Shown: positions 40,277 to 60,972 of the stretch, piece after piece
Numbering within the stretch: position 1 is the first letter of the stretch
How the letters are laid out: each line of letters opens with the position of its first letter
Source: a virus
Length of the DNA: 64,000 bases
Virus record (IMG/VR): IMGVR_UViG_3300037423_002564
Direction: 5' to 3' (one strand)
Position numbers and translations under genes: made by a program
The notes under the pieces: model-generated
Told to the model about the DNA's origin: nothing
What the model saw: the letters and a program-made list of their open reading frames with translations, nothing else
The model's database searches: none

Positions 40277-40648
40277 GTGAGCCGCATGCGCGTAACCTGG
40301 CGCCACATCCTGCGCCTGGCCGAATACCAGACCATCCGGGGGGAGTTCAAGCCCAGGCCGGACCGCCAGTGCTGCGCCTGCGGCCACAAGTTCCCCTTGG
40401 AGGCCGAGGACACGGATGATCACTACTTCGTCGCCTTCGACACGGACGGCGGGCGGCAGTTGGGCGGCGTGTGGTGGTGCCGGCGCTGCTGGCAGACCCC
40501 CGGCAAGGTGCCCATCATCGTGCGCGAGGCCCTCGCCACGATCAACGTGGAGCAAGGGGAACTGTTCACGGTCCGCCACTTCGGCGTCCTTCTGGGCGTC
40601 TGGAACAACAACTGCGCGCCCATGGAGCAGGCCGTTGAATCCCCTTGA
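40277..40648 (+). CDS. Small CxxC..CxxC protein with TDGGR variant motif
   Basis: CCACG...AFDTDGGRQLGG..WCRRC. Confidence 0.65.
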   Translation: MSRMRVTWRHILRLAEYQTIRGEFKPRPDRQCCACGHKFPLEAEDTDDHYFVAFDTDGGRQLGGVWWCRRCWQTPGKVPIIVREALATINVEQGELFTVRHFGVLLGVWNNNCAPMEQAVESP

Positions 40649-40976
40649 TTGCCTGACCTGCGGCTACCGCATCTACGACCACGGCGACGTTCACCGGGAC
40701 GTCTACACCTACACCTTCTACGCCGACTCCGGCCGCCAGCTCCGAGAGGGAAGCCGATGCCACACCCACTGGATTCCACCCACCTTCCTGCCGGGCCTGC
40801 TCGCCAAGCTCACGCTCAACACCTGGAACGGCGAGATCCACCGGATCATCACGGGCTGGGCGCCAGAGCTGTGGAAGCAGGCGCCCGACTCACCTGGCGG
40901 GTTCTCCCGACCGCGGAAGAAACGTCGGAGTGGCACTGCACGTTCTGCTGGAAGGGTCTCAACGGCTACCCGCTAG
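40635..40976 (+). CDS. Small Cys/His protein with ADSGR motif
   Basis: TTG 40635; CLTCG...FYADSGRQLREG..CHTH. Confidence 0.6.
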   Translation: MNPLDCLTCGYRIYDHGDVHRDVYTYTFYADSGRQLREGSRCHTHWIPPTFLPGLLAKLTLNTWNGEIHRIITGWAPELWKQAPDSPGGFSRPRKKRRSGTARSAGRVSTATR

Positions 40977-41185
40977 TAGGCATCGCGGTCTACCAGTGGT
41001 GGGCCGACTCTGGACGGCGGCTGGGCGGCATCATGTGCTGCCAGACCTGCCAGCGCAACGGCGAGATGCCGGACTTCATCCACGTCAACCACGACCATCC
41101 CGGTCTCAAGCAGTTCTACGGCACCCAGGACGAGATCGAGCCCGTGCTCGGCATCGTCGCGTGGGGCCACCCCAGCCTCGCATAG
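40871..41185 (+). CDS. Small CxxC..CxxC protein with ADSGR motif (start uncertain)
   Basis: CTFC...WWADSGRRLGG..CCQTC. Confidence 0.6.
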   Translation: MEAGARLTWRVLPTAEETSEWHCTFCWKGLNGYPLVGIAVYQWWADSGRRLGGIMCCQTCQRNGEMPDFIHVNHDHPGLKQFYGTQDEIEPVLGIVAWGHPSLA

Positions 41186-41199
41186 AAAGGGACCACCCT

Positions 41200-42902
41200 A
41201 TGACCACCGAATCCTACGACCCCGCGGCGTACTTCGCCGGCGCGCCCGCCAGCAAGATGGTCGACTACCACGGCCGCGGCATGGACCTCTCCTGGCCGCC
41301 CGGCCTCGACCCGAAGCGGGTGCAGCCGGGTCTCTACCGCCGGCACGGCCGCATCAACCCGGGCCACACCTTCCGCGTCTACGGCCTGGTCTACAACATG
41401 ACCACGCCGCACGGCATGGGCGGGGACGCCTGGGGCATGGGCGCCAACCAGAGCGCGCCCAAGATCCTGGTCGAGGCCCTAAAACCGCGGCCGGACGACG
41501 AGCCGCAGTGGCAGATGTACGAGATCCCCCACTTCACCCAGGAGTTCCTCAAGGCCGACGCCAAGAGCGTCTCCGACCCCGGCATCCACTTCTTCGAGCG
41601 CATCGGAGACTAGCCCCATGAACCTCGCGGAGTTCAACGAGCGCTGGCTGCGGGACCCGGACTTCCCCCAGGCCGTTCAGCATATGAGCATGCCAGACCT
41701 GGCGCGTCTGGTGGATGAAGCATCGGCGGCGTTCAAGGGGCCCGACCCGTTGCGCGGTATGATGCCGCGGGAGTTGCTGTTCTACACATACATGCGGCGG
41801 CTGGAAGCGTGGCTGCTGGCCTTCGAGCCGCCCAAGGCCAACGGAAAGAAGAGGAAGGACGCCTGATGGGCAAGCTATCACCGGAAGATCGCGATCGCAT
41901 CGCCGAGCTGGAGGCCAAGGCCAAGGGCCAGGACGAGGTGGCGGAAGCCTACCGGCGCAAGGGCGACGACTACAACGCGGCCGACTCCGAGAAGGACGCG
42001 CGGAACCTGCGCGCGCACGCGGACTTCATCCGCAACGGCGGCCAGCCGCCGGCCGAGGACGACTTCGGCGAGTACAGCGACCTGCTGCGTGGCGGCAAGA
42101 CGCCATGAAGACCACCATCTGCTTCGGCTGCGCGCGCGTGGGCGAGCCCGCCACCCGCACCAAGATCGTGGGCCTGGCCTCGCCGCAGGAGACGCAGGAG
42201 CGCTACTGCCCCGCCTGCGGCCGGGACAACGACCTGGTGGACCTCGACCCGGAGAAGGACCCGCTCTCCTACGCCCAGGACGTGGTGAGGGACTTCGCCA
42301 CCGCCGTCGGCATCGGCGACCACTGGACCGGCCCCAACTTCCCCTCCGCCCAGGTCAAACACGACGTCGAGCAGGCCATCCTGCGGCTGTACGGCCTGGC
42401 CCCTACCGAAGGAGATTCCCCGCATGGATAAGGTGAACCGGGCGTTCTACGTGGGTAACAGCTACTGGAACGCCTCGCTGCAACAGTTCTGCGGCACCAA
42501 CACCGAGTTCTCCATCACCTACGCCGGCCGCGACGTGCGTGCGGGCATCGGCGAGGTGGTCGTCATCGCCCCGGCCAAGGACAACCCGGCGGCCCCCGCG
42601 ATCTTCGTCTTGGACAGCGGGACGGACGAGACCGTCAGCTTCACGCGCATCCGATGAGGATCCACAACCCGAAGACCGGCCAGTGGGTGGAGACCCGCTG
42701 CACCGGATGCCCGTGCCACTGGCACAGCGCCATCGTGATGGGCGACGGCCTGGACGACGGTTGCTGCCGTGAGTGCGGCTGCCCCCGCAGCGAAGCCGGC
42801 TGGGCCTACTACGTCAAGGAGCACCCCGACCGCGTCCGCGGCCACGAGCCGGAGCTAGGTGGCGACACGCCCCGGCCCGGCGACGCCCCGGCGCTTGAAT
42901 AG
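41200..42902 (+). other. Six small hypothetical genes: 41200-41613, 41618-41866, 41866-42108, 42105-42431, 42424-42657, 42654-42902
   Basis: Abutting or overlapping ORFs on one strand; two are Cys-rich. Confidence 0.6.
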
Positions 42903-42915
42903 AAAGCGAGACCCC

Positions 42916-43164
42916 ATGAGCGACAGCGAGACCATCGTAGCGCTCGCGCGAGCCAAGCCTTGTCCGTTCTGCAACTCGGTCCTCTTGCGGATCGAGTACG
43001 AGTCCATGTCCCTGCGTGTCTGCTGCCAGACCTGCTATGCCAAGGGTCCCACCGCCAAGAGCGGCGACCCGCATCGGCTGCATCACGACGGCCGCGAGTA
43101 CAAGCCTGCCGTCGACGCCTGGAACCAGCGGCGCCGCAAGTACAAGAACAGCAAGCTGGCCTGA
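42916..43164 (+). CDS. Lar-like (restriction alleviation family) zinc-ribbon protein
   Basis: KPCPFCNS...CQTCYAKGP...AVDAWNQR. Confidence 0.65.
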   Translation: MSDSETIVALARAKPCPFCNSVLLRIEYESMSLRVCCQTCYAKGPTAKSGDPHRLHHDGREYKPAVDAWNQRRRKYKNSKLA

Positions 43165-43196
43165 TAACACCAGTTCTCTGGAAAGGAGGTTAAGCC

Positions 43197-44366
43197 TTGA
43201 GCATGGAGATACCGTCCACCCATTTCAATGGGCGGAGCCTGCACGAGCATGCCGAAAAGCACTGGATGCGAACCACGCCAGAGGTGGTCTTGGAATACAT
43301 CAAGACCCAATATCCCGTGATGCCCAACAAGGACATCTCAAAGGAGATTGAAAAAAGGTTTGGTCAAGTCATTCCAGAGCACGAAATTATGCGCGCTGGC
43401 AACAAGTTTGGGTTCACGAAGAAGAACAGGGGGCGCAAGCCTTCCGCCACCAAGCTGGAGTGGCCCGCGGAGGTCGACAACCTGCTGCGCAACTGGGCCG
43501 CGCAGGGGATCCCCCTGCGCGAGCAGCCGGCGCTCATGGATGCGCTCTTCCCGGGTCGCTACAACTACTACAACATCAACCAGCGGCGTAGCCTCTTGGG
43601 TCTCACCAGACGGTCCCCATGGGAGGGGCGCCCCACCGAGATCCTTGAGGACCGCTATGGCGTGTGGAGCACCCCGGCCATCGTGCGCGCCATTGAGCGC
43701 GAAACGGGCCAGAAGTTCACGCCGAAGGCCGCCCACGAGCGCGCCCTCAACCTGGGTCTAACCGCCAGCGACGCGCGCGGATGGTTCAACCTGAACGCCG
43801 CGTCGGTCGAGGTCCAGACCGACGTGCTCACCTTGGAGAGGTGCTGCAAGAAGCTCGGGGTTCCACTTCGCGGGCGCGGCACGTATCGATTCATCGACGA
43901 GCGCGGGATGGCGACGTTGCGCGGCGTCTTCCCCGACCTAGGGGAACCCGTGTTGACGGTGGACACGGCGGCGAAGGCACTGAGATGCACCGGGAAGGCG
44001 GTTCGCGCGCTAATCCTTGGTGGGCACCTTTCGGCCAGACGCTGGGGTCTCCACAACCAATGGCTGATCCCAGAGCGAGAGATTGCGCGCTACAAGAGCA
44101 AGCCAGGCTGGTTTCGTGACGATGTCCGCTGGACCATTTTCGGGCATCTACTTGACCATCATCTGTTCGCGGCGCGATCGCTAATGCCTGTGATCGACCG
44201 CCGGGATGGCGTAAGCCTGGTTCCGTCTCCGACGTGGGAGAAGACCCGCTACCGCAAGGGCGATCCAATAGGTCGAGTTATTGGGTTTTCAGCAGGCGTG
44301 CTTCATCTTGAGTCGCTGTACGGCCCGGTCGTGGTTTCCCTGGACGATACACAGCCAGAAAGTTAG
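43197..44366 (+). CDS. Multi-HTH DNA-binding protein with lower-GC codon usage
   Basis: Excisionase/MerR-like units FNLNAASVEVQTDVLTL and LTVDTAAKALRCTGKAVRALI..G.L.A; AAGGAGG-TTG start. Confidence 0.6.
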   Translation: MSMEIPSTHFNGRSLHEHAEKHWMRTTPEVVLEYIKTQYPVMPNKDISKEIEKRFGQVIPEHEIMRAGNKFGFTKKNRGRKPSATKLEWPAEVDNLLRNWAAQGIPLREQPALMDALFPGRYNYYNINQRRSLLGLTRRSPWEGRPTEILEDRYGVWSTPAIVRAIERETGQKFTPKAAHERALNLGLTASDARGWFNLNAASVEVQTDVLTLERCCKKLGVPLRGRGTYRFIDERGMATLRGVFPDLGEPVLTVDTAAKALRCTGKAVRALILGGHLSARRWGLHNQWLIPEREIARYKSKPGWFRDDVRWTIFGHLLDHHLFAARSLMPVIDRRDGVSLVPSPTWEKTRYRKGDPIGRVIGFSAGVLHLESLYGPVVVSLDDTQPES

Positions 44367-44373
44367 GCATCTC

Positions 44374-44544
44374 ATGTCAGAATGGTACGTGCTTATGACG
44401 GACAGCGGGAGGCCAGTTAGAGATATTCTGGCATTCTCTGTAATAAATGCGCTTCGCCAGGTTCCAGGCTACATGGTGGCAGAAAGAATGTTTCCGCTTA
44501 GGAGTAATATACCAATTGGGGATTATGAAGATGACGACGAATAG
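44374..44544 (+). CDS. 56-aa AT-rich hypothetical protein with TDSGR motif
   Basis: MSEWYVLMTDSGRPVRDIL. Confidence 0.5.
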   Translation: MSEWYVLMTDSGRPVRDILAFSVINALRQVPGYMVAERMFPLRSNIPIGDYEDDDE

Positions 44545-44917
44545 ATGTCAAAGAATCCCAACCGGCGAGAAGTGGGAGTTGGAGCGCACCAACCAGTGCA
44601 AAAACTGCCCGTGGAAGGTGAACTCCAACCCGTTCGAGATTCCAGGCTACGACCCCGTGATGCACGCCGGCCTGGCCGACACGATCGCAGACCCGGACAA
44701 CGTCGACCTGATGGCCCTCACGAAGCCCTTGCGCGCCATGAGTTGCCACGACGAGGAGGAAGCCTACTGCGTGGGCTGGCTCTACAACCAGCTCAACCAG
44801 GGCAACAACGTGGCCCTGCGCGTGCGCATGTCGCACTGCACCAACGCCAGCAAGCTCCGGGTCTTCGGCGAGCAGCATGAGACCTTCGAGGACACCATCC
44901 CCACGCGGAAGGAGTGA
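44526..44917 (+). CDS. Cys-rich hypothetical protein (DUF6283-like pattern; start uncertain)
   Basis: QCKNCPWK...MSCH...CVGWL.NQ...LR. Confidence 0.6.
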
Positions 44918-44924
44918 ACGCGCC

Positions 44925-47900
44925 ATGCGAGCGTACAAGACCAACATCAAGCAGTTCGAGGTCGTCGGCTTCCACGACCTCCCCAAGGTGGGCCAGGCCG
45001 TCCCCGTCCTGGTCGAGCGCTCGGACTACAAGGGCCACCAGGGCCAGGAGCAGTTCGAGCAGTACGGCCACGTTTTCCGCGTCGTCGCCGTGGATGCCGA
45101 TGCCATGACGGTCGAGCTGGAGCAGATGGAGACCAACCCGCTGATGAAGATGCAGCGCCCGCTGGTCCACGGCGAGCAGCGCAGCGCTTGGGGCAAGACC
45201 GAGTTCAACGTGCTGGAGCAGCGCCAGAAGGCGACCAGCACGGAGGAGCACTCTTGAGGCCCGAGGACGACGAGCCCACGGAGGCAGAGATCGAGGAGAT
45301 CCTGCGCGAGGGGCGCGAGAACCCGCTGCCCCTCGACGATGCCAAGCGCCTGCTGCGCAAGGTGGGCGAGCATCTGGGCATCCCGCCGGAGGAGGCCGAC
45401 CGCATCGCCGAAGAGCGCGAGCGTCTGGACCGCGGACATGACCAGTGATCAAGGGCTTATTTTATATATCGCCCGTCGCTCCGCCGACAAGAGCGGAGCC
45501 CCAACATTAAACGCCAAGGAACTTAAGTGGATTCTCGGCATCATTCTCGACCGACCAATTACTGACGAATGGCTGAAAGAGACAATGTCTGGAATGCTTA
45601 ATGAGTTAAGACAGTAATTCAGAGAACCATTCTTACCAGGAATTTCCCGCGAGCGGAGCCAGAAACCCGCATCGTTACGTGGAGGTAAACCACCTTGGAA
45701 AACATCACCATCAAGACCGTGGTCTTCCAACGCCCCGAGCGGGACGGCGGCACCACGGCGATCGCCCACTTCCACATGGTCGACGACACCCGCCCGCCCC
45801 TCGCGCGCCTCAAGGAGGCGCTGACGAAGTGGGTGGCGTTCACCAGCGCCGGGCGGGACGCCTGGAAGTCCAGCAGCGAGGACTTCAACATCGGCGACCT
45901 CCGCGATTGGTACGGCGACTCGATGCTGCACTACCTCAACGAGGAGGGCATCACGAGCATCGTGTTCGAGGCCGTGCGCGACAACAACGAAGTGGTCGCC
46001 TACGACGAGCGTCTGGTGAACGACGACGAGATCGACTTCAACGAGCCCGTCGGCATGGAGCAGGGGTAGATGGGGAAGACCGCCAAGGATCAGATGGAGG
46101 CCAACAAGGCGTTCGTCCGCAAGCACTTCCCCCTGGCCCGCTCCGTGGTCCAACACAACGGCGACTACGCTACCTACGAGATCCTCAACATGGGGACCAC
46201 GGGCAGCAGCGCCAACAGCACCACCGACGAAGCGACGGCCTGGTACTACGCGGCGCAGGCCGTGCAGCGGAAGCTCGACCGCGAGGCCAAGCTGAAAGAG
46301 GGCAGGTAGATGGCTTCAACCCTCACTGTCACGCCGGCGATGATAGATGCCCAGAGGGAGGACATCGCATGCCTCGAAAGGCAGCTCGCTCGGGCCAAAC
46401 AAGAACTCCGCGACATGCAGGAGGCATGCCGCAAAGGCGAACCCCTCCCCATCTAGGAACGCAGGAGGTACACAGGGTGACATTCAAGCGCTACGGAGGC
46501 TGCCCCCACTGCAACATGGGCCTTGAAGGTCGCAGCAAGTGGTGCAAGCACTGCCGGAAGTCGGTGAAGCCTACCCTGGCAACGCCAGCGTGGGACAGCC
46601 CGAACGACCATGCCGACGCACCCTACGATGTGCGAGAGCAGTTCTCGTGGTGGTTCTGGCTGACGGCCAGGTTGCGTTTCCGCAGGTAGGAGCATCATGT
46701 CGAAGAAAACCAAGAAGAGCGAGGGCGACAAGGAGTTCGTGCTGGCGCGCTTCCCGGGCGCCAAGGCCGCGCGCCGGAAAGTGTACGCCGGCACCAAGAC
46801 CTACGGCTGGGTCATCGAGGGGGTCGGCGGCCTGCCGATCGCCCCACAGCAGCGCGGCGAGGATGCCGCCTGGGCCGAAGCGGCCAAGGCCATCCGCAAC
46901 TACAGGGAGCAGTAGCCATGTGGCATCTCATCACCGTCGACGGCTACGTCGAGGGACCCTACAAGGGCAAGGGCGGCGTGGTGGCCGCCAAGGACGAGGC
47001 GATGAACCTCGCTCTGGATCCGCGCCGCCGCGAGTCGGCGTTCAAGACCCTGCGGGAGGGCGAGTACGAGCATACGGTCTACCGCGGCTACGAGGGCAAC
47101 CGCTGGCCCTGCTTCTACGTCGTGAGCAGCGACCGCCTGAAGGAATGGCCGGCGGCCTGGGCCCAGTACCAGGAGCGCATGAAGGGCCCGCCGCTGCCGA
47201 CCTATGGCCTGGTCAACAAGGACGGCCTGGACGTGCTCCAGGTGGGCGGCCTGCTGCCGAACGAGCCCGGTCAGCACGACGTCACCAACTGGCACGCCCT
47301 GGTGGACGCCGCCGGCATCCGCGCCTACTTCGGCGAGCCGGAGCTGGCCCGCTTCGTGAGCCATGTGCTCGATCCGGGCCTGTGGGGCGCGCTCACGGAC
47401 GACGACCGCCGGCTCTTGCAGGCGGCGCTTGACGGCTCCAAGTAAGATCATGATGGAGAAGGAGACCGGCATGGCCGACCAAGACGTTCAGGGCAACCCC
47501 TTCGAGGCCATGTTCAAGGCCGCCAAGGAAGACGGCGGGCGCACGCCGGTGAAGGAGCTGGCGCAGCGCTTTGACGTCACGCCGATGTACTTCGTCACGC
47601 AGGTCGGGCGCTACGCCCGCTCGCAGGGCCAGTCCATCCCCATGATGGACTGGAAGACGGAGTTCATCGCCCCGGACGACCGCCAGCCCGAGCAGTGCTT
47701 CCGCCGCGGCTACTGTCACGGCTACCAGCAGGCCGTCGAGGACTTCGAGGCCCTGCTGGCCCAGGCGTACCCCTACCGCGAGGCCAAGGTCGCGCGCATC
47801 GTCAGCACCCTGGGAACCTTCCTGTACGAGCGCCTGACGCAGTTCTGGCGCTACCACAAGACCCAGGAGTTCCCGGTGCCGGTGCCGCATCTGCTGGACG

Positions 47901-49398: not shown

Positions 49399-49618
49399 CG
49401 GGGTAAGATCACCAAGGACGTATATCGCGGGCTCGCTTGTTGGCGACCCGCGTTATCACGACCTTTCTCGGCGGCGGCGCCAAGATCGCCATGTTATCTG
49501 GAGCCGAAAATTCGGGCCGATCCCGAAGAACCGCTCCAAACCCGGAAAGCTAGTAAATTAGCCATATAAGGCTGGTTATCCCGACAATTCGATTTATGTC
49601 CAGCAGGAGGATTTACAG
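49399..49618 (+). promoter_or_regulatory. Intergenic terminator/promoter region
   Basis: Hairpin CGCGGG..CCCGCG near 49426-49452; AT-richer stretch with CCATATAA at 49562; AGGAGG before 49619. Confidence 0.5.
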
Positions 49619-50119
49619 ATGGGCGGACCATCCGCGGACACCCGCAGCGACATCTACCGCGTGGACCGGCAGAAGGTTATCTTGCTCTTCCTCGCCGGCC
49701 AGGCGCTGACAGAGCGGCCACGCACCCGGTACGAGTTGAGCCACGACGTCATCCGTGACGGCGACGAGCTGCGGCTCGTGATGTATGGCGAGCACGTCGT
49801 CGCCACCCGCAACTTGAGCACGGGCGCCATCACCATCGACCACTGCGGCTGGCGCACCAAGGAGAGCCAGAAGGTGATCGAGCCCATCCTCGTCCACTTC
49901 TTCGGCTACGTGCTCACGCTCTTGGTCAAGGGCCGCGGCCGTGGGAGAAACCGCGACCGCGAGCCGGTCTGGCGCATCGTCGGACCGACGGTCGATGTGT
50001 CGATCGAGTTCGACAACGCCGTGACGTTCACGCCGGTGGCGCCTTCGGTCTGGGACGTCTCGTCCGAGTTCTCCAGCGAGTTCCGGCGCTTCAACCTGGC
50101 CGCGCGGGCGTCGGCATGA
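49619..50119 (+). CDS. Hypothetical protein
   Basis: ATG after AGGAGG. Confidence 0.7.
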   Translation: MGGPSADTRSDIYRVDRQKVILLFLAGQALTERPRTRYELSHDVIRDGDELRLVMYGEHVVATRNLSTGAITIDHCGWRTKESQKVIEPILVHFFGYVLTLLVKGRGRGRNRDREPVWRIVGPTVDVSIEFDNAVTFTPVAPSVWDVSSEFSSEFRRFNLAARASA

Positions 50120-50502
50120 GCTGGGAGATCGTCCAGGAGCGCAACGGCACCGTCGACCTGAAGCGCATCCTCTACGACCGGCTCTCGGGCGAGGACACGG
50201 TCCACGCCACGGCCTGGATGGTTGGCAAGCTGGAGCTGCGCGGCCTGGCCGCCTACGCCTGCATGTTCGAGCACAAGTACTTCGACTCCGAGCGTCACAG
50301 CCAGGAGGGCGTGGGCGTGGTCATCATGATCGAGCCCCAGCCCCAAGAGGGCCGCTTCCACATCAAGGTGATGGACGAGCGGGAGGGGCCCCTGGCCTAC
50401 GACTGCCCGAAGGAGGTGCTGGACCTGCTGACCCCCACTGACGACCCGAAGGCGCTGGCCTGGCGTGCCCGCTGCAAGGAGCGTCTGGGATGCGCTACCT
50501 AA
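50116..50502 (+). CDS. Conserved phage hypothetical protein (DUF6927-like)
   Basis: KVMDEREGPLAYDCPKEVLDLLTPT....AWRARC. Confidence 0.6.
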   Translation: MSWEIVQERNGTVDLKRILYDRLSGEDTVHATAWMVGKLELRGLAAYACMFEHKYFDSERHSQEGVGVVIMIEPQPQEGRFHIKVMDEREGPLAYDCPKEVLDLLTPTDDPKALAWRARCKERLGCAT

Positions 50503-51170
50503 TCAAGGACCTGGCGGACCTGCTCGCGCTGGGCTTCATCGTGGAGCGCGACCCCGACGACACCTACGGCGCGGCCTATCCGCACGCCCAGCACTGGTGG
50601 GACATCGAGCGCAATCCGCGGGACGAAGGCGTGTTCGTCGACGTCCGCCTGGCCGACTCGCCCATCGAGTTCGGCGTCGCCATCGAGCCCTGCCGCAGCA
50701 TGTGGGCCGACCGCATGCGCGACTCCGGCAAGGGGCTCCAGCACGTCTCCTGCTACCGCGTGGAGGAGCGCCGGCAGTTCGTGGGCGCGTTGCCCGAGAC
50801 TTGGAGCGGCTTCAAGATCGAAGAGGCCAAGAACGGCGGCGTGGACATGTTCTGGACCCGGCCTACCGTCAACACGGACGGCCTGCTGACCATGCTCAAG
50901 TTCCGCCGGTGCTGGTCGTTCACGGAGATGAAGGTCTACCTGCCCAACGAGACCGGCGATGCCTGGCTCGTGCGCACCCACCACGCCGACGGCACGCTGG
51001 ACTACCGCTTCTGGGACCTGCGGGCGATCGCCAACCGCATCGTCGACTTCATGGAGGACCCCTTGGCGTGGGTGCAGATCGACCACCCGGATTCCCCCGA
51101 TAAGTTCGCAAAGGAGGTGGCGCATGCCCGAGATATTGGCGCCTTCAGCAAGATTCCAAGCCGACCTTGA
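50490..51170 (+). CDS. Hypothetical protein with DSGK variant motif
   Basis: RMRDSGKGL. Confidence 0.65.
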   Translation: MRYLIKDLADLLALGFIVERDPDDTYGAAYPHAQHWWDIERNPRDEGVFVDVRLADSPIEFGVAIEPCRSMWADRMRDSGKGLQHVSCYRVEERRQFVGALPETWSGFKIEEAKNGGVDMFWTRPTVNTDGLLTMLKFRRCWSFTEMKVYLPNETGDAWLVRTHHADGTLDYRFWDLRAIANRIVDFMEDPLAWVQIDHPDSPDKFAKEVAHARDIGAFSKIPSRP

Positions 51171-51873
51171 GCGCCTGACGGCCCAAGGCTGGAAGATCGA
51201 CTACCACGAGGGCTACCGCAAGTTCTACGACGCGGTGGACTTCATCGACCTGGCCGAGATCGAAGTGGGCCGGGCTTACATGAACGGGCCGCTGGACGAC
51301 GAGGTCGAGCTGGTGCGCATGGAGCTGGGCGATTACGGCATCATGCTGTGCAAGAAGAAGGCGTTCAGCCTGGACTGGCAGCCGCTCGTGGACTCCGGCA
51401 CGCGCGAGTTGGGCGAGTTGCAGGAGTGGGAGAACAAGAAGCCACCCGAGGCCGCCTGCGTCGCGTTCCGCAAGGTGCTGCGCGACATCGCGGAGTTCCA
51501 CCGCCGCGTCGGCAAGGCCACGCCCGACAAGCCCGATGGCCTGCTGGAGTCCCAGGTAGACGGCTACACCGGCTACTTCTCGTGGACCTGGGACATGGTG
51601 GACCAGCTCTACGTCTACGTCCACCTGCCGAAGGCCGGCTGGGAGCTGGAATACGAGGACCGCTGGTTCCACACCCTCACCGACCTCCAGGCCACGTTCT
51701 GGGAGATGATCGACAAGTACATGGGCCACGACGCGGAGTCCCGCGGCGAGGACGACGACGACCACGAGGGCGACCTGATCGACCGGAGCTGGGCGGCGAA
51801 GGTCCGGCCCACGGACCCGATCATCCGCCCTGCCACCCGGAAAGGGGTTCGAGAGCATGTCTACTTCGAGTAG
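51124..51873 (+). CDS. Hypothetical protein with DSGTR variant motif
   Basis: ATG after AAGGAGG; PLVDSGTRELG. Confidence 0.65.
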   Translation: MPEILAPSARFQADLERLTAQGWKIDYHEGYRKFYDAVDFIDLAEIEVGRAYMNGPLDDEVELVRMELGDYGIMLCKKKAFSLDWQPLVDSGTRELGELQEWENKKPPEAACVAFRKVLRDIAEFHRRVGKATPDKPDGLLESQVDGYTGYFSWTWDMVDQLYVYVHLPKAGWELEYEDRWFHTLTDLQATFWEMIDKYMGHDAESRGEDDDDHEGDLIDRSWAAKVRPTDPIIRPATRKGVREHVYFE

Positions 51874-52252
51874 TCCCTACAACACGCTGGGCGTGAAGCG
51901 CAACACGGAGCACCACCTGCGGTTGCTCGTGGGCCTGGCCGCGGACACCGGTCGCGTCTACTTCACCCGGCCACACAAGTGGCGCATCCGCATGTTCGTG
52001 GTCAACGAGAACCGCGAGCTGGTGGAGTTCGAGCCCACGGGCAACCCGATGAAGCTCACGGGCGGCTCCCAGGAGGAGCTGGACGTCCACCGCCGGCAGG
52101 AGGCGAAGCTGATGGGGTTCTGCCTCAAGAAAAGAGCCCTCTTGGCGGCCACTGTGGAGGCCGCCAATATGCCCGCGGCCACCTTCGGCTCCCTCTGCCG
52201 GGTCGCGGGGGTTCCCGTGCCCAAGGTAACATATCACAGGCTCGACGAGTAA
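51857..52252 (+). CDS. Hypothetical protein with ADTGR variant motif
   Basis: GLAADTGRVYF. Confidence 0.65.
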   Translation: MSTSSSPYNTLGVKRNTEHHLRLLVGLAADTGRVYFTRPHKWRIRMFVVNENRELVEFEPTGNPMKLTGGSQEELDVHRRQEAKLMGFCLKKRALLAATVEAANMPAATFGSLCRVAGVPVPKVTYHRLDE

Positions 52253-52620
52253 TGGGAGCGATCGCCTACACCCATGACGGGGACGTCTATTGCACGAGCT
52301 GCTGCGAGGCAGAAGAGGACAACCCGGAGCAGGGCGCCATCTTCCCCTGGAACGAGATCGACCACCGCGGGCTCTTCTGCGGCCAGTGCCGGCGGGCGAT
52401 CGTGGACCCCCAGAGCCCTCCGTTCGTTCGCCTATTCGTGGCCGATTCCGGCCGCGCCTTCCGCGAGGAGAAGTGCGGCCAGGGCTGGATCCCCTCCGGC
52501 ATCCCCGACCATGTTGCCGACGCCATCAACGATATGGACGATCACCACGTCATCGAGTTCCTGGACGATGACGGCCTCCTCAACCTGGCCGTCGGCACGG
52601 AGGTGCGCCGTGCCGGGTGA
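52252..52620 (+). CDS. CxxC..CxxC protein with ADSGR motif
   Basis: YCTSC...FCGQC...LFVADSGRAFRE. Confidence 0.65.
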   Translation: MGAIAYTHDGDVYCTSCCEAEEDNPEQGAIFPWNEIDHRGLFCGQCRRAIVDPQSPPFVRLFVADSGRAFREEKCGQGWIPSGIPDHVADAINDMDDHHVIEFLDDDGLLNLAVGTEVRRAG

Positions 52621-52963
52621 GGAGCGCATTCGCGAGCCAGACCCCCACCTCTTGGAGGGCTGGGAGGTCTACGTCGAGACCATCTTCTACAACGACTCGG
52701 GCCGCTTCATCGGCTCCAAGCACACCTGGTGGCCCGAGACGCCGGCGGAAGTGCTCTACGCCTTCATGGACAACCAGTATGTCGCCGACATCGCCCATGA
52801 ATGCCTACCTTACGGCATCTGCGCCGACATCTACGCCAGCAGGATCGAAGGGAGAATCTGCAAATGTCCGCTACCTGTGAGGCGCGCGCCGGGACCGCCC
52901 GGTACGTGCGCCTGTGGCGCCAATTACGGGTCTTCAACAAGTGCTACACCATCCAGGAACTAG
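52610..52963 (+). CDS. Cys-rich protein with NDSGR motif
   Basis: GTG after GGAGG; IFYNDSGRFIGS. Confidence 0.6.
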   Translation: MPGEERIREPDPHLLEGWEVYVETIFYNDSGRFIGSKHTWWPETPAEVLYAFMDNQYVADIAHECLPYGICADIYASRIEGRICKCPLPVRRAPGPPGTCACGANYGSSTSATPSRN

Positions 52964-53748
52964 ACGAGCGGGTGCGTGATGCGGTCTTCGAGAGGATGCG
53001 CAACGACCCGAACCAGTGGGACTACCACGACAGCGAGATGTGCAGCGAGGACGCCAAGCACACCCTGGAGCGGTTCGGTTACGAAAACCAGGAGGTGAGC
53101 TGGAGCGCCGGCTTCTGCCAGGGCGACTACTTCAACTTCGCCAGCGGCACCGTGCGCGACCAGTTCGTGATCCGCCGGGTGATGGGCAAGCGCGCGCGCC
53201 GGCTGGAGCGCTTCTTCGAGAAGCGTGGTCGTGACCTCTACCGTCTCATCGGCATCAGCGTGAACGCCGGCTACCGCGGCCTGGACCGGAACTCCCGCGA
53301 GATCGTCATCTCGCTGGACGAGCAAGACCTGGTGGTGGGCGGGACCTTCACCGCCCTGGCCGATTCCGGCCGCAAGCTGGAGGCCCACACGTTCACCACC
53401 TACAACCTGGGCAGCGGCCTGGCGCGCGAGCTTCAACACGAGGTAGAGGGGAACTGGAGCCGTTGGGGCGAGGATGGCGCGGACCCCGTCGTCCGCAAGG
53501 TGCGCGGGTTCTGGTACGTCGTGAAGCCCATCACGATGAACGAGTTCATGGAGAAGTTCGTCTCCGATCTGGAAGCGGCCGTCGAGGCGGACTGCGACCG
53601 CATCTGCCGGAACATCCTAAGCGACATCCACGACGAGATCATGTACAAGTCCAGCGACGAGTACCTCGCGGAGGAGTGCGAGGGCCGCGACCTCTGGTTC
53701 GACAAGGAAGGCGAAGAGGTAGACCTGCCCCATGGATACCCCCGGTAG
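52864..53748 (+). CDS. Hypothetical protein with ADSGR motif
   Basis: WSAGFCQGDY...ALADSGRKLE...YKSSDEYL.E. Confidence 0.65.
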   Translation: MSATCEARAGTARYVRLWRQLRVFNKCYTIQELDERVRDAVFERMRNDPNQWDYHDSEMCSEDAKHTLERFGYENQEVSWSAGFCQGDYFNFASGTVRDQFVIRRVMGKRARRLERFFEKRGRDLYRLIGISVNAGYRGLDRNSREIVISLDEQDLVVGGTFTALADSGRKLEAHTFTTYNLGSGLARELQHEVEGNWSRWGEDGADPVVRKVRGFWYVVKPITMNEFMEKFVSDLEAAVEADCDRICRNILSDIHDEIMYKSSDEYLAEECEGRDLWFDKEGEEVDLPHGYPR

Positions 53749-54070
53749 CGTCTGCCGGCAGTGCGGCCGGCACTACATCCAGTGGCTCCACGTCCGCTTC
53801 TTCGCCGACGTGGGCAACCGCGTACTGGGCTATGTGGCCGGCCCGGCCATCTGCTTTCCCCCGGCCGTCCAGAAGATGGCCTGGAGCGCCATCAGGAACA
53901 ACTGGGGCTTCACCAAGGTCCAGTTCCTGCCGGAAATGGCCGGCCGCCTGGTGCAGGTGAAGATCGGCAGCGCGATGGACCACTGCCTGCTCTGCACCCT
54001 CACCGACGATGGCATCTTTGCCAGGAGCTACCGCAGCATGAACGGACTTGGCGATGACGGCAACGGCTGA
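53732..54070 (+). CDS. CxxC protein with ADVGNR variant motif
   Basis: CRQCG...RFFADVGNRVLG...CLLC. Confidence 0.6.
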   Translation: MDTPGSVCRQCGRHYIQWLHVRFFADVGNRVLGYVAGPAICFPPAVQKMAWSAIRNNWGFTKVQFLPEMAGRLVQVKIGSAMDHCLLCTLTDDGIFARSYRSMNGLGDDGNG

Positions 54071-54398
54071 CGAATACGAGGCCGCGACCCAGCGGGACCC
54101 GCTCTCGCGCATCTGCTTCCACTGCGACCGGAAGTTCTCGCCCAGCTTGGATTACATCCGCGCCGCGGACAGCGGGCGTTCGCTCCACCAAGGCGGTGGC
54201 CCCGCCATCATCCTCACGCGCCACGAGCGCATGTTGCTCGGGCGCTTCTCCAAGTACAACACGGACGGCACGTCCAAGCTTCACAACGTCCCGCACAACC
54301 AGATGATTGATGGTTGCTGGTACTGGGGCGACATCCACCTCGAAAGCTGCTGCTCGACCTGGTGTCAGCGGAAGTGGTACGAGGAGAACCACGATTAG
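54048..54398 (+). CDS. CxxC protein with ADSGR motif
   Basis: CFHC...IRAADSGRSL...CCSTWC. Confidence 0.6.
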   Translation: MAMTATADEYEAATQRDPLSRICFHCDRKFSPSLDYIRAADSGRSLHQGGGPAIILTRHERMLLGRFSKYNTDGTSKLHNVPHNQMIDGCWYWGDIHLESCCSTWCQRKWYEENHD

Positions 54399-54407
54399 GA
54401 GATCGAC

Positions 54408-57400
54408 ATGATCAAGCTCTCCAACGGCCTGATGGCCGACATCTCCACCCTCAAGCTCGACCGCTTGCAGCGGCTACCGCAACTCCCGGGCGGCATGGGC
54501 GTCAACACCCAAATGGGGTCCGGCTGCTTCTTGGAGCCGCCGGGCCACCCCAGCTATTTCATGCGCTCGGTCGGTGGCGACTGCCGCGCCTACGTCATCA
54601 GCATCGGCGACGGCGTCTATATCGTCGACGGCGAGACCTACAACGGTGGCTGGAAGGACGTTAACTGGGTCAAGTACGGTGCGCCGAAGGATCGCCAGGA
54701 GCGGCTCAACTGGCTCTACAGTCCGCTCCCTGTCGACCACCCGCGGGTGCGCGCCTGGATCGAGCAGCTCTACCGCCACCAGCGCAACTGCTACCGCATC
54801 GAGGGCGAGAAGGACTTCGTCGTCTTCCCGACGCAGTCCCACGACTTCATCAAGATGGGGCTGTTCGTCCCCGAGCCGTCCGGCCGCGAGGCCAAGCTGG
54901 AGGGTGGCATCTTCGACCACCTCTCCGAGGAGACCAAGGAGCGCTACCGCGTCACGCAGGCCGGCCTGATGGCCGAAGCCCAAGAGACCGTCAAGATCAA
55001 GCGCGAGGCGTTCAACGCGGAGCGCGCCAAGGCTTGCACGCCCGATCGCCACCTCGCGGTCTTGAGCGTCCGCAAGTTCTACCCGGAGTACCAGCCGGAG
55101 CTGGACCTCATCAACGCCGAGCAGGGCGCCCGGCCGGCCGACTGGTGGACGGTCCTTGCCACCAAACCCGATCCGTGCCCGATGGCCCACAAGCCGCATA
55201 TGCGCTTCGTGTGCCAGTACTGCGGCGACAAGAGCGACGGCACGCCGGGTCCCAACGGCGAGGTCTACAACAACGCCAAGGACGGCAACAAGGAGGTCTA
55301 CGCCGGCTACGTCTACCACAACGAAGCCGCCAAGGTCGAGGCACCTCGGGCATGATGACCATCCGCGTGAGCGTGGACCACGGCGAGCTGCGGCGCGACG
55401 AGTTCTCGTTCTACTTCGAGCCCCTGCGCAACGAGTTGCGGCTGTCGGGGTACGAACGCCAGACGCGGAAGAGCAAGCGCGCCAAGTTCGTCGCCGTGGC
55501 GGCCTATCCCTCCAGGCGCCCCTTGGAGGTCCTGCGCGAGTATCAGGTGCCGCTCACGGCCGCCGTGATCGCCGAGGCCCACCAGCAACTCGTGGACCGC
55601 GTGCGCGCGGCCAAGCTGCCGGAGCCCAACCCCAACTTCCCAGAAACCCCATGAACACGCCCATCGACGCGAGCCGTCACTTCGTCGATGGGTGCGACCC
55701 CTGTATGCGCGCCCAAGAGGATGACACGACCTACTTCGACCGCTGCACGTTCTGCAACCGGCTCGTGACCACGTATTGGTGGCTTCACGACGAGCAAGCC
55801 CACCCCGCCAACGGCAACGAGTGCGAGGTGTGCTTCTACAAGGCCGTATGCGATGCTTGTGCGATCGTTATCGACAGTAACGGTGCCATCCTCTGTCCCC
55901 CATGCCGTGATGCGCGGCATGGCCGAAAGGTTGCACCCGGTGGAAGACCATAAAACCTTTGTCATTACCAGCTACCCCAACGCCTTCGCCATCTTGGTCG
56001 GCGACACCTGGCAGGTGTGGAGCGGCGACGCGGCGGAGCTGCTGATCGCCGCGGCCGAAGGTAGCGAGGACGTAGCCTGGCAGGCCGCCGCCAAGCTCAT
56101 CAAGGACAACCAGGTGGCGGCCGTGAACGCCTCCTACCAGGAGGTACATCGCTGCGCCAAGGCCATCGAGTACGAGGCCCAGCGCATCATGCACGCCGCG
56201 GAGATGCGCCGGCCCCAGGACGTGATGCACCACTTCAACAAGCTCCAGGACTTCTACACGCTGCTCGCCAACGAGCGCGTGATGCTCGTGGCCTACGAAT
56301 AGGCCGGGAAGGAATCGCATGAACAGCAAGGACTTGGCCGAACGTATCGTCGAGGCGATGCGCGAGAACACCTTCGCGCTCTACCAGAAGGACACCGACA
56401 AGGACCGGGAGCTGAAGGCGCTGATCGCCGGCATCCTGGGCGAGACGCCGGCCGGCCTCTTGTCGGTGGATGTGCGCGACGAGGCCATCGTCTCGCACAT
56501 CGACAAGGAGATACTCAAGCGGCTCGCGCCGGGCGAGTTGCGCCGCGTCCAGGCCGACATGATCGACACCCTCATGCGGCTGGAAGAGGCGCTCCAGAAG
56601 GAGTGCGGGCCCGATGGAGGCCGGGTGATGGGCATCGGCGCGAACCTCAACGTCAACGCCTGGCTCACGATGCCGGAGCTGATGGGCACCGGCGGCGACA
56701 TCCGAACGGCGAAGATCGTCGCCTGCCTCCACGATATGAACGAGGGCCACACCATCTTCGAGGACCACGGCCCAGAAGACCCGCACGAGGACGACACCTA
56801 CCGGTGCGACGAGTGCAAGAAGTCCGGCCCGTGGTCGGAGACGGCGGCCGGCCACTGCCCGCACTGCGACATGCCGGCAGACTTCGTGCCCCACGACCCC
56901 TTCGCGCACAAGGACAACCCGCCCCCGCTCTACGATGACCAGCCGGAGCCGGACGGCCCCCAGGCCAACCCCTGGGTCGCGGAGGCGGATCTGGAGCGCG
57001 ACCGGCAGATCTACCCGGGCATCCACCCCGATGCTTGAACAACCCACGCCGCGCGAAGCGGACGAGGTCTCCGACGAGGACCTAGAAGCCGCGAGCGAGA
57101 TGCTCGACGGCCTCGTCAACGGCACCCACTACCCGCCGGCGGGCTCGACGATCGGGCCCTTCACCGTGCGTTACATCGGAGGTTAACCCAGCCATGACCC
57201 ACTTGGACCGCCAGGTCATCATCCACCTCTTCCAGGGCGGCGCCGTCGTCGCCCGGGACAAGGACGACAAGAGCAAGGAGACCAAGAAGAAGATCGACGG
57301 CTCTCTGCCGGTCTTCTCCGTCGACACGATGGAGGAGGCTAACCAGCTCATCACCTTGCTCTGCAAGCGCGGCTACGACAACGAGTCAATGCTGCTGCCG

Positions 57401-57834
57401 TTCTCCGGCGAGTACGAGCACATGATCAAGGTCTCCGAGATGATGGAGGAGGTGTACACGCTCAAGAAGCGCGGCTACACCGGCGAGGAGCTGTTCGCCC
57501 CCTTCGTCCGCTACAAGAAGGAGACGGGCTGCGAGGTCAAGCTGCCATGAGCGGCAACACCCGCCTCTTCCGGGTCGAAACCTCGGAGCTGATCTACGCC
57601 ACCGTCGTCCGCTACGTGGAGCTGCCGGCGGACGACGTGGAGCCCGAGTACAACGCCGCCATCAAGGCCCGGGAGGAGCAGAAGAACGACATGGCGGAGG
57701 TCCACCCGGACGGCCACTACGAGCACCTCGACACCCGCGAGGTGAAGGAGGTGACGGGCGCGGAGGCCGAGGCCATCCGCAAGCAGGCAGCCAAGGACAA
57801 GGCGCGCATCGAGCGCTTTGACGTCACTCGCTAG
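54408..57834 (+). other. Hypothetical genes: 54408-55355, 55352-55654, 55651-55953, 55940-56302, 56319-57038, 57194-57550, 57547-57834
   Basis: Abutting + strand ORFs; several carry CxxC pairs. Confidence 0.6.
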
Positions 57835-57836
57835 AC

Positions 57837-58193
57837 ATGAAAACGAAGAAGAAGAAAACCTACCCCAAGGTTCACATCACGGCGGCCGATCTGGCCGCCC
57901 TACCGGAGTACTCCGCCTCCTTGCCTACCGGCACCTATTTGGGCAAGCGCTGGAAGCGCGATTGCGGTCCCGACCGGGATTCCGGCCGCAAGACCTGGTT
58001 CATCGGGGAGTTCTACCCCATCGACATCCCCGGAGAGGTGGGCATCCGCTGGAGCGAGGTGTGGCTGGTGCCCGCCTACGGACCGACGGAGATCCACCCC
58101 AAGGAGGCCAAGACCTGCCTCTGCCACACCGAGCCCTACAAGTTCGGCGTCTGCCACGTATGCGCGGCCTGGCGCTGGAAGCACGAGCGATAG
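57837..58193 (+). CDS. Hypothetical protein with RDSGR motif
   Basis: LPEYSASLPTGTYLGKRWKR...DRDSGRKTWF. Confidence 0.65.
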   Translation: MKTKKKKTYPKVHITAADLAALPEYSASLPTGTYLGKRWKRDCGPDRDSGRKTWFIGEFYPIDIPGEVGIRWSEVWLVPAYGPTEIHPKEAKTCLCHTEPYKFGVCHVCAAWRWKHER

Positions 58194-58202
58194 CGAGGAC
58201 CC

Positions 58203-60484
58203 ATGCCCTTCAAGCCCATCGACCCGGTGGACTACACCAACAACCCGGCAGACCCGCGGCGGGAGAAGCTGGGGAACGCCGGCGCGGCGTTCGTCAACCG
58301 GCTGCTGGAGCGCGGCTGGAAGCCGATGGTCAACCCGCAGACCAAGCACAAGGATCGCATCGACATCCGCGACGAGCAGAACGTCACGGTGGCGATGCTC
58401 CACGACTACGACGACATCAACAGCCTGGCCGAGGCGCTCCAGCCGCCACCCAAGGAGTTCTTCCGCATCATGAGCGGCTTCCAGAAGGCGCTCGCGGACG
58501 GCTGGACGCTTGAGACCAAGGACGACAAGATGTTCGCCTGCCGACCGGCCTGGGCCAACTACAAGCTCCAGAACTACACCGACCTGGAGCTGTGGCTCCA
58601 CGACGCGGGCTACGCCCATGGGTGCTTCTAAGATGGGCATGTTTAGCTGGACTTGCCCCAAGTGCAAGCTGCCCGTACTCTCACCCATGGTGACGGGCGG
58701 CGACCCGCGCGCGGTGAAGCTCACGCGCGTGGTCTTCCTGCTGCCCGGCGGCAGCCTCATCCGTGGCGACTACGACGGCTATGGTGGCACCAACCAGCAC
58801 CCGATGCTGGTAGCCGACCTGCCCGTGGACAGCCAGGTCAAGGTGCAACACCAGGGCTGCTACACCGGCGAGAGCTACGCCGACGCGCCCGACAGCCCCG
58901 ACGAGCCCCGGCAGGGCTTCATGTACAGCGAGGAGGAGCTGGAGCGTATCTTCAGCGGCACCCCCATCCCCGACGACGAGCCGAGCCCCATGGACCGGGC
59001 GCTGGCCGACGTCCTTGCAGAAGGAGAGACCCGTTGAGTCAGAGTTTCGAGCTGATCAAGGAGCTGCTCGCGAGCGATCGCGGCCCCGAGGCGATGGAAG
59101 AGATCGTCGAGAAGGCGCGCGCGCTGGTCGCCGCGGCCGAGATCGAGGAGGAGGACGAACGGCTGGACCAGCTCGTCGCCAACTTCGAGGGCAACATCGC
59201 CGACCTGGAGAGCGTCACCAACCGCCTCGACAACCTCACGGGCGACGGCCTGGCCGGCCCCTGGGTGCCCGGCTGGCTGGAGAGCCTGGGTGTGGAACTC
59301 GACGAGGTCGAGGACATGAAGTCCACCGCCTACGACCTGCACGAGAAGATGGAGACCTGGCGCGACCAGATGCAGGAGCTGCGCGCGGGCGTCAAGGGAC
59401 GCCGCACGGTGCTCGCGGCCTACCCCGGCGCGAAGATCGTGCAGCCCAACCTGATGCTGCCGCACTTCGTGGCGGAGATCGACGGCGAGGAGGTCGAGGA
59501 TGCCGTCGGCACCACGGAATGGGAGGTCTGGGAGGTGCTGGCCGACCTGCACAAGGAGGGCAAGCTTTTCCCGGTCGCGAGCGGCCAGGTGGACCACTCG
59601 CGGCTGTCCACCAACCAGACCAACTACTGCGAGGACTAGGCCATGGACCCCAAGGCCAACCTCGACGAGCAACTCGCCCTCGCCAAGCGCGTCCAAGAGA
59701 TCGCGGGCAGCCAGCCAGCCTACATCGAGCTAAACGAGGAACTGTCCGCCGAAGTGCGAGAATCGGCGTCTCGCCTCTCCGAACTGGTTCTCGCGCTGCA
59801 CGAGTGGCGCGAGAAGGGCGGATTCGACCCCTACCAGACCGCGCCGACGATGGACCTTGAAGCCCGTAACCCGTGGGGTATCTACCTGACCAACATCGAC
59901 ACGGAGCTGGGCTACCAGCGCCTGACCGACGAGCAGGTCCGCAATCTGCGGACGGAGCACCCGCGGGCGGAGATCTTCCACATGAAGACCAAGGACCTGT
60001 ACGTCTTGGAGCCGGACGACTGGAAGGACATGGGGTTCAAGGAGAACCCGCTGCCCAAGCGGGCCTTACCCTAGAAGCGAAAGCGAAAGGAAAGCGAAAG
60101 CCCATGAGCTACAAGCGCATGCTCGCGGTGATGGTCGTGGAGGCCGGCAAGGAGCCGGAGCTGCGCGAGGTGGAGATCGAGCCCCAGTTGGACTCCTGGG
60201 ACGCCCTCAAGAACGTCTACGCCATCACCGGGGACGAGGGCAACACGGAGTACTTCTCCCTCCCGCCCGCCTACCCGGACGGCTACAAGCTGTTGTCGGC
60301 GTGGGACTGGCGGGACCTCCGCTTCAACCGCCTCATCAATGCCGAGCCCTACTTCGGCACCGTGGTCATCGTGGCCCAGTGCCGGCTGGGCTCGCAGTGG
60401 GGCGCGCGCAGCATCATCGACGAGGAGTTCGAGTTCCTATGCCAGTGGCTGACCATGAGCAACCCGCGGTGCTTGACGGCGTGA
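58203..60484 (+). other. Hypothetical genes: 58203-58631, 58633-59037, 59034-59639, 59643-60074, 60104-60484
   Basis: Abutting + strand ORFs with phage-like codon usage. Confidence 0.6.
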
Positions 60485-60972
60485 ACGAGCCCACGGTCTT
60501 CCGCGGCCCGCGGATGGAGGACTTCCCCGACACGCCCGAAGGGTCGGACGCCTACGGCAACGCGTACTGGAAGGCGCGCTGGGACTTCATTCACGCCGGC
60601 CACTCCGAGCGCTTCGAGGAGCACTGCCTGGCCGAGGAGGACGGCACCACCTACGAGTTCCAGGTGGAGCAGCGCACCCAGAGCGGCACCACCGCTTCCG
60701 ACCTGCCGGTCTACGACGACGTGGACCAGGCGATCGCCTACCTCGAAGCGGCGCCGTTCGCCGGCATGGTCCAGCGCTACGTCAAGGGCGCCAATTGGCT
60801 CACGGCCGGCATCGCCTACGAGAAGCACCGCGGCATCAAGGACCTGTGGCTCGCGCGCAACGAGATGCCCGACATGCCCCACTGGCACGGCGAGCGCCAG
60901 TGCGACAGCGGGCGCTACTTCTTCGTGCGCTGCGAGCTGTGTAAAGACCGAGCCGACACCCGGACCCCGTAG
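60481..60972 (+). CDS. Hypothetical protein with CDSGR motif
   Basis: GTG overlaps the upstream stop; HWH..RQCDSGRYFFVRCELC. Confidence 0.65.
   Translation: MNEPTVFRGPRMEDFPDTPEGSDAYGNAYWKARWDFIHAGHSERFEEHCLAEEDGTTYEFQVEQRTQSGTTASDLPVYDDVDQAIAYLEAAPFAGMVQRYVKGANWLTAGIAYEKHRGIKDLWLARNEMPDMPHWHGERQCDSGRYFFVRCELCKDRADTRTP

Follow-up and report, generated by a model that had tools for sequence, protein, structure and literature searches.

Introduction

Archaeal eL24 is a ribosomal protein in which a CxxC knuckle, an aromatic residue and a proline are followed after about 15 residues by a turn ending in G-R/K, and then by a second knuckle of the type [F/Y]-C-S-x-x-C. A similar layout is suggested for a group of small proteins encoded by a 64,000-nucleotide stretch of viral DNA, here called the window (bases 114867–178866 of the 203,733-bp IMG/VR virus record IMGVR_UViG_3300037423_002564, which has direct terminal repeats and a GC content of 67.6%). 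An initial annotation of the window had singled out the peptide DSGR, exact or in variant form, in 14 small proteins that it took to be unrelated. We argue instead, with a probability of roughly 60%, that DSGR is mainly the hairpin-turn signature of a so far undescribed family of small putative zinc-finger proteins, specific to this lineage and expanded by tandem duplication.

The comparison with eL24 also brings out differences. The turn of archaeal eL24 reads N-D-G-R, whereas that of the phage proteins reads D-S-G-R, one residue different. Compared with eL24 and with TRASH fingers, which have 19–22 residues between their Cys pairs, the phage proteins have an insert of about 55 residues in their long form and a spacing of about 28 in their medium form. 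Finally, eL24 belongs to the ribosome, whereas the phage proteins are multicopy accessory proteins. Eukaryotic eL24 keeps the hairpin despite having lost its Cys ligands, which parallels the carriers without cysteines described below.

YacG, an inhibitor of DNA gyrase, is a small treble-clef finger whose action depends on binding an enzyme; a phage takeover protein might plausibly work in a similar way. It has no DSGR-type hairpin, and the structural Z score that connects it to the phage proteins is low. MYM/FCS fingers (PF06467; 2w0t) supply the second structural match and a weak Pfam hit in one member, both below every threshold, and FCS fingers differ from the phage proteins in having no invariant turn. 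The zinc ribbons of TFIIS and TFS offer an analogy of another kind: a zinc-braced hairpin whose invariant functional tip reaches into a partner. There, however, the tip is acidic and the proteins are not multicopy, and neither a sequence match nor a structural match to them was found here.

A family of cysteine-rich hairpin proteins

Genes were called with a codon-usage model trained on the genome's own long open reading frames (ORFs), which gave 291 genes; three more were added manually from frame plots. All nine exact DSGR sites of the initial annotation are present, all on the + strand, with Asp codons starting at window positions 40725, 41006, 44401, 52444, 52694, 53362, 54168, 57978 and 60904. 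There is no further + strand copy in the 64-kb window, and the sole − strand copy lies at 12816. Eight of the nine sites are in frame with a local GC content at third codon positions (GC3) of 0.86–0.95. With the variant sites counted too, the range widens to 0.86–0.97. The exception is the site at 44401, which lies in a 56-codon ORF with a GC3 of about 0.5 (0.56 at the site) within a stretch of 40–56% GC; whether this ORF is coding is doubtful.

Six of the 14 listed carriers (40286, 40635, 40871, 52252, 53732 and 54054) are homologous. Each of them combines a CxxC knuckle with a β-hairpin, whose turn reads DSGR (or DGGR or DVGN), and with another pair of Cys (Table 1). The annotation was right that each protein has one copy of the motif. 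Its statement that the carriers show no extended similarity fails for at least these six, which profile hidden Markov models (HMMs) and BLASTP connect. Nor is its view of the carriers as unrelated supported: a paralogous fold with DSGR as its turn applies to at least six of the 14 and to about 18–20 genes of the 204-kb phage. The window region holds the second cluster of these genes (cluster 2), and the other cluster of the same genome (cluster 1) has about 15 members.

Several searches converge on the family. Reading 45 residues upstream of each site, we found a CxxC 12–22 residues ahead of the motif in six window carriers, and most members of a second group of DSGR sites, at genome 37.4–44.4 kb, likewise have an upstream CxxC. 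The pattern CxxC-x(3-24)-DxG[RKN] occurs in 20 proteins, compared with 0.22 in shuffles. A domain HMM built from 14 segments spanning knuckle and motif recovers 15 ORFs with E values of 3e-6 to 4e-15, among them window ORFs 40635, 40871, 52252 and 54054 and the DVGN gene at 53732. Seeding an iterated HMM with four full-length proteins linked by BLASTP brought together ten proteins (E 1e-15 to 1e-32, across about 89 residues), of which two carry DTFR and DVGN in place of an exact DSGR.

The members come in three forms. The long form consists of CxxC, 14–15 residues, DSGR, about 55 residues and CxxxC. An alignment of 17 long-form sequences, which are 13–30% identical to the first sequence except for two closer orthologues, has invariant C21, C24, D39 and C100, while R42 and C104 are conserved at 90% or more. 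In the medium form only 5–8 residues separate the turn from the second Cys or Cys pair, and the alignment shows no variation at C, C, D, G, R and C. The compact form (CxxC, 5 residues, DSGR, 4–5 residues, CxxC) is found in the other cluster and on a related contig, L100; its four Cys are invariant. Profile–profile comparison gives a probability of 63% (E 7e-5) for long against medium, 39% for long against compact and 5% for medium against compact. Because each comparison spans just 23–27 columns that contain the motif itself, it is likely, but not proven, that the three forms are one family.

Table 1. DSGR carriers and variant carriers in the window (positions are those of the window; hhalign columns and probabilities refer to alignment with the family).
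ORF	Strand	Description	Basis
11281..13311	−	676-aa phage protein, widely conserved, containing a zinc ribbon of its own; DSGR 12816-12805; outside the small family	homologue alignment
40286..40648	+	120-aa member, medium form: CxxC, DGGR hairpin, CxxC	BLASTP link to 40635; aligns with medium form
40635..40976	+	113-aa member; DSGR 40725-40736; upstream CxxC, downstream C-x-H-x-H	family HMM 1e-15; domain HMM 2.8e-10
40871..41185	+	104-aa member; DSGR 41006-41017; CxxC ... DSGR ... CCxxC	domain HMM 4.3e-11; medium-form alignment
44374..44544	+	56-aa ORF, no Cys; DSGR 44401-44412; doubtful gene	GC3 about 0.5, 40–56% GC stretch
50490..51170	+	226-aa protein with DSGK; non-member	no Cys knuckle, no profile match
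51124..51873	+	249-aa protein with DSGT; non-member	no knuckle, no profile match; variants at chance
51893..52252	+	119-aa protein; DTGR after hydrophobic strand, no knuckle	hhalign 11 columns, probability 2%
52252..52620	+	122-aa member; DSGR 52444-52455; CxxC 17 residues upstream, Cys 6 downstream	domain HMM 4.9e-10
52610..52963	+	117-aa protein; DSGR 52694-52705 in strand-turn-strand, no upstream knuckle	hhalign 18 columns, 19%; family HMM E 0.04
52906..53748	+	280-aa protein; DSGR 53362-53373	hhalign 13 columns, around motif only
53732..54070	+	112-aa member, long form, DVGN replacing DSGR	family HMM 4e-20; domain HMM 1.4e-12
54054..54398	+	114-aa member, long form: CxxC, 14 residues, DSGR (54168-54179), about 55 residues, CCxxxC	family HMM 8e-32
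57837..58193	+	118-aa protein; DSGR 57978-57989; Cys-rich C-terminus	hhalign 8 columns only
60469..60972	+	167-aa protein, start uncertain (ORF opens 60301); DSGR 60904-60915	hhalign 15 columns, probability 1%

Two of the member genes deserve a comment on their structure. The 3' end of the gene at 40635 overlaps the gene at 40871 by 106 nt. The coding signal shifts from frame 2 to frame 1 near 40860, the frame-2 ORF continues to 40976, and the GTG at 40871 is the latest possible start of the frame-1 gene. Two readings of the region 40860–40976 fit: the genes overlap by 106 nt, or a −1 frameshift (or an assembly error) would join two DSGR fingers in one protein. In the protein encoded by 52252–52620, the DSGR finger is preceded by an N-terminal strand-D-G-D-strand and then CxxCC, which looks like half of a second finger. 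Outside the window and far from both clusters, two further proteins at genome 9337–10727 (− strand) combine a knuckle with DxG[KR] (...GDHGK and ...GDAGR) and could be remote relatives of the family.

Predicted fold and nearest known structures

An AlphaFold2 model of the protein at 54054–54398, based on the 17-sequence alignment, has a predicted local distance difference test score (pLDDT) of 66.7; a first model from a 10-sequence alignment, with a pLDDT of 53.8, was not used. The model predicts a strand at residues 31–37, a turn at 38–42 and a strand at 43–45, followed by a helix, two strands and a helix past the last Cys pair. Its most confident parts are the two knuckle regions. The placement of DSGR on a β-turn, proposed in the initial annotation from the letters alone, agrees with this model.

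Foldseek with the model returned nothing from the Protein Data Bank (PDB) at an E value of 0.001 or better. VIA-align against 48,161 chains gave only six with a Z score of 2 or more. The best is YacG bound to gyrase (4tma_I; Z 3.6, 2.5 Å, 38 of 47 residues), followed by the FCS finger of L3MBTL2 (2w0t, Z 2.9), and then by a PNUTS:Tox4 chain and residues 1–48 of chain u of a nascent 60S particle (8esq_u, Z 2.1). A sequence profile search of the PDB found three archaeal eL24 proteins with E values of 0.2–0.7. In these alignments DSGR stands opposite NDGR, and the first knuckle, the aromatic residue, the proline and the G-R of the turn coincide. Below the Pfam threshold there were matches to zf-FCS (E 0.021) and the VATC treble clef (E 0.065), each in one of the 17 members, and to DUF7576 (0.007). 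Feature and shape searches of the ESM Atlas yielded nothing but unnamed viral clusters or unrelated folds; a phage FCS cluster was among the nearest named clusters (0.84).

The four-ligand layout of a treble clef, CxxC ... CxxxC (or CxxC), is found at the sequence level in the long, medium and compact forms. The Cys pairs of the long form are separated by about 75 residues, those of 40871–41185 by about 28 and those of the compact form by 13–14, all outside the canonical range of about 19–22. No significant match was found to a Pfam family model or to solved members of the eL24, TRASH or FCS groups. As every score is weak and the knuckle spacing differs, we infer that the family resembles the eL24/TRASH/FCS/YacG treble-clef finger, a resemblance rather than a membership.

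Relatives and conservation

The family is rare. Among 1.84 billion representative proteins, the family profile matched 15, eight from the phage itself and seven from other sources. DSGR is kept in six of these seven non-self clusters. Two of the non-self matches are adjacent on contig L098, which has four DSGR genes in 7.3 kb, and another lies on contig L100, which has seven in 4.6 kb. Several genes, at 24–59% identity and in similar order, are common to L098 and cluster 2, and likewise to L100 and cluster 1. Hence, the arrays are older than the divergence of these contigs from the phage.

Orthologues on L098 and L100 that are only 24–50% identical to the phage proteins retain the motif with a single exception, in which it reads DNMR. 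In a closer strain (L003) with 82–99% identity all motifs are kept, including that of the orthologue of 52252..52620 (91% identity); in the pair with 82% identity ADSGR is unchanged and its flanks are altered. The phage DNA is also present in seven soil and rhizosphere sequencing runs, none of them an RNA run. In one soil strain the Gly codon of the DSGR in 52610..52963 carries a synonymous change (GGC>GGT at 52702); the list of variants, drawn from contigs, is partial. Judged from these alignments, the motif is evidently under purifying selection, and in the comparison with L098 and L100 it outlasts nearly all of the sequence around it. Conservation among orthologues, which the initial annotation had named as a check on its idea, is thus borne out.

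Other searches did not extend the family. Scans of the carriers with Pfam and PHROGs gave nothing significant, and neither tblastn of two carriers nor blastn of the region produced a match among 50,697 phage records. A search for related loci that started from one family member found nothing. The domain profile had no match save one borderline in five IMG/VR relatives found through the 676-aa protein (Table 1), and we found nothing relevant in the literature on DSGR or on TRASH fingers in phages.

Possible function of the hairpin tip

If DSGR marks the turn of a zinc-finger family, a mechanism can be sketched. The four Cys would bind one zinc ion in a treble-clef module, and DSGR would correspond to the N-D-G-R/K turn of archaeal eL24. 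The zinc site would brace a rigid hairpin that presents an invariant tip, made up of an Asp cap, the Ser hydroxyl, the Gly amide and the Arg guanidinium. This tip would meet one kind of ligand, which could be a protein pocket or a nucleic-acid phosphate, and the divergent remainder of each paralogue would confer its individual role. A ligand of a common kind suggests itself because Ser and Arg are as strictly conserved as Asp and Gly, and because the turn survives the loss of the metal ligands; we hold this part tentatively, at slightly less than even odds. Since the genes of the family are embedded in extended series of small accessory genes, a host-takeover or regulatory role is most likely.

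It could also be that DSGR is a mere fold-stabilizing turn inherited from an eL24- or TRASH-like ancestor, with no common ligand, and that the paralogues act through their variable surfaces. The archaeal N-D-G-R turn is equivalent and lies at the same distance from the first knuckle, Asp and Gly are usual in tight hairpin turns, and the paralogues vary widely in charge and length. For a purely structural turn, though, one has to account for Ser and Arg, which are conserved like Asp and Gly among proteins of about 20% identity, Ser even through switches between AGC and TCN codons. The turn also persists after the loss of zinc ligands in several carriers. We therefore regard an exclusively structural role as doubtful, though it is the alternative that deserves to be taken most seriously.

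A bolder extension is that the tip serves as an address on some 25 proteins, recognized by one phage or host factor, so that the phage would possess a genome-wide docking code borne on hairpins. We think this unlikely. If true, it would mean that the tip was kept when zinc ligands were lost and that it arose independently at the ribbon turn of the 676-aa protein.

Even in its plainer form the family is of interest. About one gene in 15 of this 204-kb soil/rhizosphere phage belongs to a family that has no Pfam or PHROG model. Among paralogues of about 20% identity, its four-residue tip is no less strictly conserved than the metal ligands, which points to a small and experimentally tractable surface. 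In large phages, small proteins that have expanded within one lineage are often those that meet the host, and the family is hence a sensible starting point in the search for new takeover or counter-defence functions.

Carriers outside the demonstrable family

Once the clear members are removed, about eight DSGR remain genome-wide where about 0.8 are expected. They could be taken to mean that DSGR is a free-standing docking or modification motif, placed on hairpins of unrelated proteins and read by one shared reader or enzyme, much as the initial annotation imagined, which also considered decoys for a host sensor. The motif is indeed kept as strictly as the Cys ligands, at a variable distance from them, and also occurs in proteins without Cys. 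However, most carriers are homologous, and those left unassigned are mostly small genes within or beside the two arrays, as decayed paralogues would be. There is also no candidate for the reader or the enzyme. Most simply, the five hairpin-only carriers (51893, 52610, 52906, 57837 and 60469) are degenerate paralogues that have lost their zinc ligands; less probably, they acquired the motif independently.

A separate case, which speaks for a free-standing motif, is the 676-aa protein encoded on the − strand. Large phage contigs hold about 1,000 homologues of it, and a four-Cys ribbon is present in all those that we aligned. Alone among about 120 aligned homologues, it has DSGR at the turn of this ribbon, where the others have a D-x-x-K/R type of turn. 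On the other side, its relatives already hold a D-x-x-K/R template at the position concerned. All in all, a motif shared by unrelated proteins seems to us quite improbable. We also considered the 676-aa protein as the parent of the family and rejected it: its DSGR is not conserved, and its ribbon instead bears a weak resemblance (E 0.006–0.025) to the zinc domain in the regulatory chain of aspartate transcarbamoylase. The protein matches no Pfam or PHROG family, has a Gly/Gln-rich tail and adjoins PhoH.

Several observations nevertheless weigh against a single zinc-finger family as the explanation of DSGR. First, the profile links between its three forms are short and include the motif. Second, the five hairpin-only carriers align with the family in hhalign over just 8–18 columns around the motif, with probabilities of 1–19%. 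Third, the 676-aa protein clearly belongs to another family and still bears DSGR at its zinc-ribbon turn. Fourth, the matches to known folds are all weak (eL24 E 0.2–0.7, Z at most 3.6, pLDDT 66.7, no Pfam model past its cut-off). Fifth, the predicted isoelectric points of the members range from 4.3 to 9.9, which indicates no uniform nucleic-acid-binding character; uniform binding of nucleic acids by the family is accordingly unsupported.

Among the individual carriers, 52610..52963 is possibly a degenerate member. Residues 14–106 of 52906..53748 match phrog_5162 (E 6e-13), and the only homologue of this protein that we found is an orthologue with 92% identity. In 60469..60972 DSGR lies near the C-terminus, between HxH..C and CxxC.

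The doubtful ORF at 44374..44544 lies in an AT-rich stretch (44350–44560, 40–56% GC) within a region of 66% GC. On the − strand, 44551–44522 contains a sigma-70-like promoter sequence with 11 of 12 matches (TTGACA, 18 nt, CATAAT); all surrounding genes are on the + strand. This putative promoter could drive an antisense or small RNA. The stretch has no Rfam match, and no tRNA or Rfam family was found within 40–62 kb. The genes that neighbour the family members are uninformative: one encodes a protein with an HTH_17 domain and the others match no family.

Enrichment and composition

The initial annotation had estimated that well under one DSGR should occur by chance in its carriers. The enrichment holds and is larger than estimated. 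Across 293 predicted proteins (63,930 aa) DSGR occurs 24 times, about 28 times the chance level; in 200 rounds of shuffling within proteins it came up 0.86 times on average and never more than 5 times. Each of the remaining 23 permutations of D, S, G and R is found 0–4 times. Counting 4-mers against shuffled proteins, as the annotation had proposed, ranks DSGR second among enriched 4-mers, behind PPPP (in a first gene set with 21 DSGR copies). As a control we used a complete 208-kb relative of 64% GC, whose 676-aa marker protein is 51% identical: it has a single coding DSGR, no 4-mer enriched to a comparable degree, and the knuckle-plus-turn pattern in one protein. Given the low shuffle counts and the clean control phage, the enrichment is real and not compositional.

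Nor are the copies a repeat at the DNA level. Their Ser codons are of both kinds (AGC in 11, TCN in 13), which rules out a DNA repeat or gene conversion as their source and confirms that the conservation acts on the protein, as the annotation had read it. The chance that GC-rich composition, out-of-frame ORFs or a DNA repeat accounts for the excess is negligible: although the genome is 67.6% GC and the codons for D, S, G and R are GC-rich, the shuffles, the other letter orderings, the single copy in the 64% GC relative, the varying codons and the location of the sites within the high-GC3 frame already refute it.

The five variant peptides of the annotation were all located, and they fall apart into different things. 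DGGR (40442) and DVGN (53804) are family members by homology. Single-substitution variants as such are not enriched: by arithmetic from the letter frequencies of the first gene set, about 18.5 DxGR with a residue other than Ser are expected and 21 observed, and about 13 DSGx with a residue other than Arg are expected and seven observed. DSGK (50718) and DSGT (51388) are therefore what chance gives. More generally, the locus illustrates that the signal of an enriched peptide can largely collapse into paralogy.

The strongest 4-mer enrichment in the whole genome is that of PPPP, with 21 copies where 0.7 are expected; the copies are concentrated in eight proteins, such as those at genome 199046–199759 and 22036–22416. 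CPAC occurs six times against 0.04 expected and marks only assorted zinc knuckles.

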